DNA from: a virus
Taxonomy: Duplodnaviria > Caudoviricetes
Direction: 5' to 3' (one strand)
IMG/VR virus record: IMGVR_UViG_3300014208_000002
Location: 96,001 to 160,000 of that record
DNA length: 64,000 nucleotides
In this document: positions 22,302-22,780 of the stretch, piece after piece
Layout of the letters: each line of letters opens with the position of its first letter
Position numbering within the stretch: position 1 is the stretch's first letter
Notes under the pieces: generated by a model
The model's input: only the letters and a program-made list of their open reading frames with translations
Database searches by the model: none
What the model was told of the DNA's origin: nothing
Made by a program: the position numbers and the translations under genes

Positions 22302-22780
22302 AAAAAGCCCTGCGGATTACATCCGGGCCAGACATATTAAATATCTGTGGGTATTTCCTAACGATACTCCGCTAAGTGTTAGGATGCGGGAATTGATAAA
22401 ATTATTAAGTAGCAGTGTAAAGCAACTCCCCCCGCTTATGCCCACTGCTTCTCAGCATGGACTTCACACTACTAATGTCCCGCCAGTATATTCCGGGACT
22501 CGGGGTTTACAGCTTTTGGCTACCCTTTTCGCTAGAATATTTTTGGGGCTATCTCCACTCAAGGTTTTCACCAAGGGCTTCTCTGGTAACCAATATTCTA
22601 ACTCCAACCACAACTCCATGTGCAATTAAGCTAGGAATTTAGGTTTCACAATTTCCGTGGCTCTATTTAAGAATCAGGATCACGGACAACTCCCCATTCC
22701 GAGTCATTCAAAGCTGGTACGGTATCTGTTTCGGGGAACGACCTTACCCTACTCCTTCGGCTACCAAAGTATCCAGCCAT
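22302..22780 (-). ncRNA. Large ornate ncRNA (about 480 nt), ROOL/GOLLD-class candidate
   Basis: GC-enriched interval without a credible ORF, dense in hairpins and GNRA-like loops, ending in a GCCC..GGGC hairpin plus U-run. Confidence 0.6.

Follow-up and report, generated by a model that had tools for sequence, protein, structure and literature searches.

The tRNA island of a groundwater phage opens on the minus strand with a gene-free transcription unit, which we interpret, tentatively, as a non-coding leader peculiar to this lineage, with a processing element derived from a tRNA as its punctuation. Under this interpretation, a near-consensus promoter would drive a transcript that opens with a non-coding leader of ~505 nt, of which ~430 nt—closed by a 12-bp long-range helix—appear to be a lineage-specific insertion. 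The leader would join directly onto an 88-nt cloverleaf, a putatively retooled copy of tRNA-Leu(UAA) in which the stems would all have stayed intact or been lengthened and the D stem and T-loop consensus would have been lost, and the transcript would then run on, with no terminator, into two small orphan open reading frames (ORFs). The cloverleaf would no longer decode but would serve as tRNA-like punctuation: host RNase P may cut on its 5′ side (22373/22372) and 3′ tRNA-processing enzymes may cut behind it, and these cuts would yield the leader as a separate RNA of ~0.5 kb and set the downstream mRNA free. Cleavage by RNase P we infer from the anatomy of the locus and from precedents in other systems; any function of the released leader is likewise putative.

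Genomic setting and non-coding status

The window analysed here is a stretch of 64,000 nt (bases 96001–160000) from a virus record that is 200,726 bp long and bounded by direct terminal repeats. Its minus strand carries all genes from position 1 to ~27,470, interleaved with ~19 tRNA genes, and the unit described here lies on the same strand, as the opening unit of the island of ~20 phage tRNAs. It is flanked by a conserved gene for a 132-aa protein (22985–23383), upstream of which a 5′–3′ exonuclease and an HNH endonuclease are encoded, and by an ORF of 54 aa (22047–22211). The latter belongs to a pair of small orphan ORFs on the minus strand (21746..22211), the other encoding 95 aa (21746–22033); their coding scores are 0.09 and 0.25, respectively, and searches for homologues of the two found none beyond the same phage. 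Further into the island, between the genes for tRNA-Gln and tRNA-Lys, the minus strand encodes a 709-aa protein (18681–20810; phrog_1735, with DUF8224 on the ENA gene call), which shares 55–61% identity with proteins from Bacillus phages (TsarBomba and BCP78 among them) and from many large phages.

A preliminary description of this DNA had proposed a large, ornate non-coding RNA at 22302–22780, free of credible ORFs, enriched in GC and rich in hairpins. Every motif that it named reads on the minus strand, the same strand as all the flanking genes. Its statement on ORFs is borne out by four lines of evidence, in that codon usage, independent gene calls, comparison with Pfam and PHROGs, and protein searches all leave 773 bases (22212–22984) without a gene. 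Under a codon-usage log-odds model trained on 98 long ORFs of the phage genome, the best frame between 22221 and 22880 reaches about −0.05, whereas in-frame sequence averages 0.33 (5th percentile 0.06) and the flanking genes score 0.25–0.45. The 773-nt gap recurs in gene calls made independently on the ENA assembly, and no open frame of the region has a match in Pfam or PHROGs. The GC enrichment was likewise confirmed: GC content over 22285–22878 reaches 44.4%, compared with a genome mean of 34.7% (sd 4.1), which places it among the top 3.5% of windows.

It is hardly credible that the region hides an unrecognised protein gene, whether in small minus-strand ORFs or in a plus-strand frame that runs for 130 codons without a stop (22237–22629). 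That long frame has never been called as a gene, belongs to no Pfam or PHROG family and has no homologue among 5.8 billion proteins, and the C/T-rich composition of the plus strand is enough by itself to deplete stop codons. Every frame has a codon-usage score under the in-frame range, the ATG at 22384 has no Shine–Dalgarno (SD) sequence, and alternative genetic codes open no long minus-strand frame, nor does the phage carry a suppressor tRNA.

Three other readings of the region were considered and rejected: a decayed protein gene, in view of the 10–14 stops in each minus-strand frame; stop-codon recoding, given that there is no suppressor tRNA and that no long minus-strand frame appears under alternative codes; and a replication origin, there being no iterons.

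Promoter and extent of the transcript

A sigma-70-type promoter occupies 22885..22913 on the minus strand, where TTGACA (22913–22908), a 17-nt spacer and TATATT (22890–22885) agree with the consensus at 11 of 12 positions and provide the best promoter match in a 2-kb scan. The start of transcription is predicted at ~22880–22878, and the unit is presumed to be transcribed. The same promoter had been named in the preliminary description and is present, ~105 nt outside the interval then assigned to the RNA. The interval itself was wrong: the unit extends from ~22878 to 22285 (~594 nt), or to 22212 at the next gene.

The GCCC..GGGC hairpin with a U-run, formerly taken as the end of the RNA, is not an intrinsic terminator, since the U-run (UUUUUCUU) forms its loop and the stem is followed by UCCGCAUAACC; a scan of the region, including the interval between the leader and the ORFs, found no intrinsic terminator. 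From the cloverleaf, a terminator-free tail (22212..22284, minus strand) leads to the SD and ATG of the 54-aa ORF, and in the predicted fold six consecutive U residues within it (22232–22227) base-pair with the 5′ terminus of the transcript. The 54-aa and 95-aa ORFs are probably co-transcribed with the leader, from which no promoter or terminator separates them. One sequencing run labelled RNA-Seq (X4) yielded a 183-nt contig over 22593–22767, which is probably DNA and was given no weight as a sign of expression. The earlier claim of a non-coding transcription unit beside phage tRNAs holds.

Predicted fold of the leader

The leader, which makes up the first ~505 nt (about 22878–22373, minus strand), is G-rich, GC-enriched and non-coding. 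Compared with shuffled sequences, the whole 591 nt fold with a z-score of −2.46 on the minus strand versus −0.21 on the plus strand. This stability is unevenly spread, so that the earlier statement that the region is rich in hairpins stands for the 3′ 97 nt (z −4.93, a stability matched by 0 of 200 shuffles) but not for the 5′ 506 nt (z −1.69) or a 443-nt core (z −1.93), and the notion of an ornate large RNA is not supported over the 5′ 500 nt. In sliding 200-nt windows, the fold is equalled by stretches of the nearby 709-aa gene; that the 5′ 506 nt are only marginally above shuffles, and no better than some coding windows, counts against our preferred reading. The hairpins that had been named individually do exist, GUCCCG/CGGGAC, CAGAUAU/AUGUCUG and GGGCUUU/GAAGCCC having pairing probabilities of 0.92–0.99.

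In the predicted fold, a 5′ hairpin (GAAGA..UUCUUUC-UUU-GAGAGAA..UCUUU; 22829..22859, minus strand, pairing probabilities ~0.78) precedes the closing helix, whose 5′ strand (UUAGGG.G.GGGAG, 22809..22821) pairs with 22391–22379 at probabilities of 0.90–0.96; the predicted 3′ strand (UCCC.C.UCCUAA, 22379..22391) completes a helix that encloses the core of ~430 nt, all on the minus strand. Within the core, a sub-domain at 22581..22769 (minus strand; z −2.18, 1 of 60 shuffles) is closed by a 12-bp helix between 22769–22758 and 22592–22581 (probability 0.70) and includes a hairpin at 22645–22606. A GC-rich 3′ sub-domain (22411..22525, minus strand; probabilities 0.76–0.96, z −2.48, 2 of 60 shuffles) contains the GUCCCG/CGGGAC hairpin (22499–22477) and a three-way element (22473–22411) with a GAGA tetraloop at 22453–22450. 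No tile of the 5′ 500 nt, when searched for tRNA remnants, scored above the shuffle range.

The 5′ strand of the closing helix doubles as an SD-like run, followed by a two-codon mini-frame, UUG-CUU-UAA. This run is identical at 11 of 12 positions to the SD of the 54-aa ORF (direct repeat D3), the leader run UUAGGGAGGGGG (at 22793–22821) nearly duplicating the ribosome-binding site of that ORF, UUAAGGAGGGGG (22209–22227), on the minus strand; in the predicted fold, the UUAGGGAGGGGG run is sequestered within the closing helix. We consider it very unlikely that the unit is a cis-regulatory leader, one that would govern how well the 54-aa and 95-aa ORFs are translated or how stable they are, for example by way of the SD-like run (22821–22809). 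Such control would suit a leader–ORF interval with neither terminator nor promoter, the direct repeat of UUAGGGAGGGGG and UUAAGGAGGGGG, and a predicted pairing of the transcript 5′ end immediately before the SD that serves the 54-aa ORF; however, no riboswitch, T-box or leader family matches the region, the ORF's own SD is unsequestered in the predicted fold, and a length of ~650 nt is far above that of known bacterial leaders for a gene of 54 codons.

A second haplotype, ~96–97% identical, is represented by short contigs from two other studies (runs X3 and X4). Five of its six listed changes lie within 22686–22697 (at 22686, 22690, 22694, 22695 and 22697), clustered in a single hairpin of the leader (hairpin H; 22668..22700, minus strand; arms 22700–22692 and 22676–22668, 11-nt loop). 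The hairpin is kept in both haplotypes (−10.3 versus −9.4 kcal/mol), with G-G becoming C-G, G.U becoming A-U and A-U becoming U-U, and with two changes falling in the loop. The changes break one helix of the reference minimum free energy (MFE) structure, which loses 9 kcal/mol on the variant; the total energy of the core is unchanged (−133.7 versus −134.3 kcal/mol). These haplotype changes are consistent with structure, yet far from proof of it.

The cloverleaf at the 3′ end

The strongly folded part of the unit, whose tRNA-like shape the preliminary description had not recognised, is an 88-nt, four-arm cloverleaf at its 3′ end (22285..22372, minus strand), lying within the 3′ 97 nt that outfold all 200 shuffles; its MFE frequency is 0.24. 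An acceptor-like stem of 7 bp (GCGGAGU/GCUCCGC) is followed by an 18-nt D-region with no stem, by an anticodon-like arm that we take as 5 bp with the loop UUUAAUA—so that the anticodon reads UAA—and by a variable-arm-like hairpin (5 bp/3 nt). The T-like arm can be drawn as 7 bp around a 5-nt loop or as 5 bp around a 9-nt loop; it joins the acceptor strand without a linker, and the discriminator that follows is an A. Pairing is perfect in all four stems, two of which, extended to 7 bp, are longer than their tRNA counterparts. The element thus resembles class II tRNA-Leu(UAA) in its 7-bp acceptor stem, UAA triplet, short variable arm, linkerless T stem and discriminator A, and differs from it in having no D stem, no 7-nt T loop and a U at position 37.

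Among 20 phage tRNAs, tRNA-Leu(UAA) gave the best local match to the cloverleaf, with 23 of 30 positions identical and in register (19 vs 20); a score as high against any tRNA was reached by 19 of 500 shuffles, so that the match alone is worth only p ~0.04, a point against our reading. The general tRNA model of Rfam (RF00005, with a 29-bit cut-off and canonical D and T loops) had no hit in the cloverleaf at E ≤ 10, and neither ARAGORN nor a custom class-II tRNA model (R1) detected it. That the Rfam tRNA and class-II models do not score the element likewise tells against our reading, as does its want of the 7-nt T loop that natural RNase P substrates normally present. In favour of our reading, the sequence match and the synteny with a relative described below indicate that the cloverleaf is most likely derived from tRNA-Leu(UAA). 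As the window holds a working tRNA-Leu(UAA) elsewhere (16431–16515), this copy would be free to change role, and we read it as a tRNA-Leu(UAA) copy kept as structure, not as decoder.

Relatives and homologue searches

The locus was compared with two relatives, L016 and L015. L016 encodes a 5′–3′ exonuclease that is 82% identical to that of the phage and a neighbour that is 65% identical to the 132-aa protein; the exonuclease of L015 is 58% identical. In L016, the 132-aa gene is followed by TTGACA-17-TATACT (2285–2313), a leader of ~75 nt, a true tRNA-Leu(UAA) and tRNA-Glu, and in L015 the order is TTGACA-17-TATAAT (11039–11067), ~250 nt and tRNA-Leu(UAA). The promoter is therefore conserved in position, and the cloverleaf sits where L016 has its true tRNA-Leu(UAA) behind the same promoter.

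The leaders themselves are not conserved. Those of L016 and L015 are unrelated to the phage leader, the three lengths being 75, 250 and 505 nt, and that of L015 is unstructured (z +0.79); the first ~60 nt of the phage leader can be weakly aligned with the L016 leader (nhmmer E 0.09–4.8). Local alignment of the feature to the non-coding stretches of L015 (818 nt and 249 nt) scored no better than alignment to shuffles. We found no homologue of the leader or cloverleaf by blastn against 50,697 phage records, nor by nhmmer and blastn against 103 loci (1.1 Mb), apart from identical copies in L105 and L106. None turned up in IMG/VR loci located through three neighbouring proteins (the 709-aa protein, the exonuclease and the 132-aa protein), in JGI metagenomes with the 132-aa protein as anchor, in exact and degenerate pattern scans across collections of metagenomes, viruses and genomes, or with a single-sequence covariance model of the cloverleaf run over 540 kb; no paralogue of the feature was found within the phage genome. 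The large metagenome collections were reached through exact patterns and protein anchors. L105 and L106 contain the only identical copies, and three independent assemblies carry the same sequence. With no homologue of leader or cloverleaf, there is no covariation support for either, which weighs against our reading, as do the unrelated leaders of the nearest relatives, one of them unstructured, which fit a fast-evolving spacer.

The main rival of the punctuation model is a functionless spacer, in which debris of tRNA-island turnover, comprising a decaying duplicate of tRNA-Leu(UAA) and ~430 nt of foreign insert, would be transcribed only as a long 5′ UTR of the two small ORFs. We regard this as possible, if on the unlikely side. 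It would account for a leader that is unconserved, and variable in length, in relatives with exonucleases as close as 82% and 58%, and for the modest fold z-scores over the 5′ 500 nt; like the leader, the ORFs that follow it are orphans, which makes the whole module lineage-specific. The island is also filled with other GC-rich gaps of 300–480 nt with similar z-scores (−1.4 to −1.9), and the homing endonucleases in and near such islands imply frequent insertion. Against it stand the four perfect cloverleaf stems, two of them over-long, which are unlike the neutral decay of a tRNA gene, the identity of the three assemblies and the folding energy kept by the second haplotype. A GC content of 44% retained within a 35% GC genome also argues against long neutral decay.

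Known RNA families

The preliminary description had likened the RNA to the ROOL and GOLLD families. A cmscan of 22000–23100 against all 4,227 Rfam families at E ≤ 10 returned a single noise hit on the opposite strand, and the resemblance does not hold. The ROOL model (RF03087; gathering score 99.1 bits, 574 positions) had no match at E ≤ 10 in 22000–23100 or in the whole 200.7-kb phage, the control genomes themselves holding no ROOL, and a whole-phage search with the GOLLD model (RF02032; gathering score 150 bits, conserved 3′ region) gave two 7-bit noise hits elsewhere and none in the region. GOLLD RNAs commonly exceed 800 nt, compared with ~594 nt here from predicted start to cloverleaf end; the setting, phage-encoded and first in an island of ~20 tRNAs, is that of ROOL. 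Since the models of both families are silent in the region and the tRNA-island setting is all that agrees, the feature is not a member of ROOL or GOLLD, nor of any other Rfam family.

That the unit might nevertheless be an autonomous large structured RNA—a new family analogous to ROOL and GOLLD, possibly self-assembling or binding tRNAs or ribosomes—strikes us as unlikely. Such an RNA would share with ROOL and GOLLD the position in a phage tRNA island, and the unit is ~0.5 kb long, GC-enriched and free of ORFs, has a promoter to itself and is predicted to fold, inside the closing helix, into several domains with GNRA-type loops. Set against this are the silence of the ROOL and GOLLD models, a weak thermodynamic signal in the core, absence from the closest relatives and a lack of homologues that precludes covariation; beyond its position, the analogue has no positive evidence.

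Several other identities were tried and rejected. RNase P RNA (RF00010, RF00011) had no match at E ≤ 10 in the phage, controls being matched in 11 of 14 genomes; two short stretches, AAGUCCAUGCU and GUAAACCCC, which we take to resemble RNase P RNA motifs, occur in the wrong order. Group II intron domain models (RF01998 D1–D4 and related) had no match, and a group I or II intron splitting a tRNA was rejected on the silence of the intron models. ARAGORN finds neither tRNA nor tmRNA in the region, which disposes of tmRNA, and a T-box or riboswitch was set aside for want of a match to any such Rfam family. A Y RNA or YrlA was also rejected: no TROVE (Ro60) domain is encoded in the phage, and a Y RNA would be left with no partner, as the phage has RtcB (window 3545–4684) but no Ro60.

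Other structured stretches

Other parts of the island, and of its relatives, contain structured or gene-free stretches of their own. On the minus strand at 14193–14450, just upstream of a cluster of tRNA-Ile, tRNA-Phe and tRNA-Gly, a gene-free stretch of 258 nt folds with a z-score of −5.8 (0 of 200 shuffles), and presents a long perfect hairpin, then a multi-branch domain of ~175 nt closed by GGAAGCAUAG/CUAUGCUUCC, then UUUUU. We consider this a stronger small-RNA candidate than the feature at 22285–22878.

A second promoter-like site (TTGACA, 17 nt, TATACG; ~21712–21684) lies in the minus-strand stretch 21343–21745, followed by a leader of ~170 nt and a tRNA-Glu(UUC)-like body (21452–21518) that scores 26.7 bits, under the tRNA cut-off. 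On the 3′ side of this body come a C-rich run, CUUUUCCCUCCCUUUUUU, which is complementary to the G-rich leader motif at 22821–22803, and a hairpin with six U residues. In L016 (2320–2656), tRNA-Leu(UAA) and tRNA-Glu are preceded by a G-rich leader, GGUAGGAUGAGGGAAAAAGAG, and followed by a C-rich trailer, CUCUUUUUCCUUCCCCCUCCCUACC; leader and trailer could form a long processing stalk around the tRNA pair.

L015 has 818 nt with no called gene (11981–12798; z −3.7) between tRNA-Leu(CAA) and tRNA-Glu, which contain a small SD-led ORF, a long inverted repeat (12540–12647) and, at ~12725–12790, a D-armless tRNA-like element whose T loop, UUCAAAU, is canonical; at 11437–11916, an HNH endonuclease gene lies between the tRNAs. 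In the phage itself, the stretches 9327–9697, 9781–10262 and 10338–10656, between tRNA genes, are GC-rich (42–47%), 320–480 nt long and without a scored ORF; their z-scores are modest, from −1.4 to −1.9, and no sequence modules link them to one another or to the feature.

Discussion

The punctuation reading has precedents in MALAT1 mascRNA and in mitochondrial ‘tRNA punctuation’, where a cloverleaf follows a long non-coding RNA or stands between coding units, and RNase P defines the ends. Those systems are eukaryotic or organellar, whereas cleavage in the phage is hypothetical and its cloverleaf is without a canonical T loop. The built-in, tRNA-like end-processing signal that the punctuation reading predicts would also offer a simple experimental handle in the form of RNase P cleavage.

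A bolder proposal, in which the locus would define a new class of large phage non-coding RNA, its leader freed by RNase P at a purpose-built, tRNA-derived cloverleaf and given a ROOL/GOLLD-like role in handling tRNAs or ribosomes during infection, seems to us improbable; it would amount to a bacterial-virus counterpart of the MALAT1/mascRNA arrangement. The case for a large RNA is weak, the leader being an orphan, absent from the nearest relatives and, over its 5′ 500 nt, marginally above chance in fold. The safer lesson is that fast turnover of phage tRNA islands leaves behind long GC-rich spacers and retooled tRNA copies.

Closer to home, a further precedent is given by the RNAC and RNAD of phage T4, whose genes lie among the tRNA genes of the T4 cluster and which mature out of tRNA precursor transcripts. 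They resemble the feature as non-coding RNAs of a large lytic phage; at ~120–140 nt they are unlike the ~0.5-kb leader, whose processing is put forward here as a prediction. Known also as species 1 and 2 stable RNAs, they are confirmed RNAs of unknown function (PMC9697503).

Among the RNAs of unknown function that sit beside phage tRNA islands, ROOL and GOLLD are two of the most striking; their location is described as ‘often near tRNA islands’ (doi 10.1101/2024.12.08.627333). GOLLD (RF02032) is a phage RNA with tRNAs beside or embedded within it, as the feature has a tRNA-shaped element covalently joined to a large RNA, but many GOLLD members exceed 800 nt and the feature spans ~0.5–0.6 kb. 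ROOL (RF03087), which assembles as a homo-octamer into an RNA-only cage, is of a similar size class (~570 nt) and is a large non-coding RNA of phages and prophages with the same tRNA-island setting, but its model does not match the feature, in which none of its pseudoknots or conserved motifs is in evidence. Were the feature nonetheless to prove a third, unrelated example, this would point to the genomic setting, and not to any particular fold, as what these RNAs have in common.
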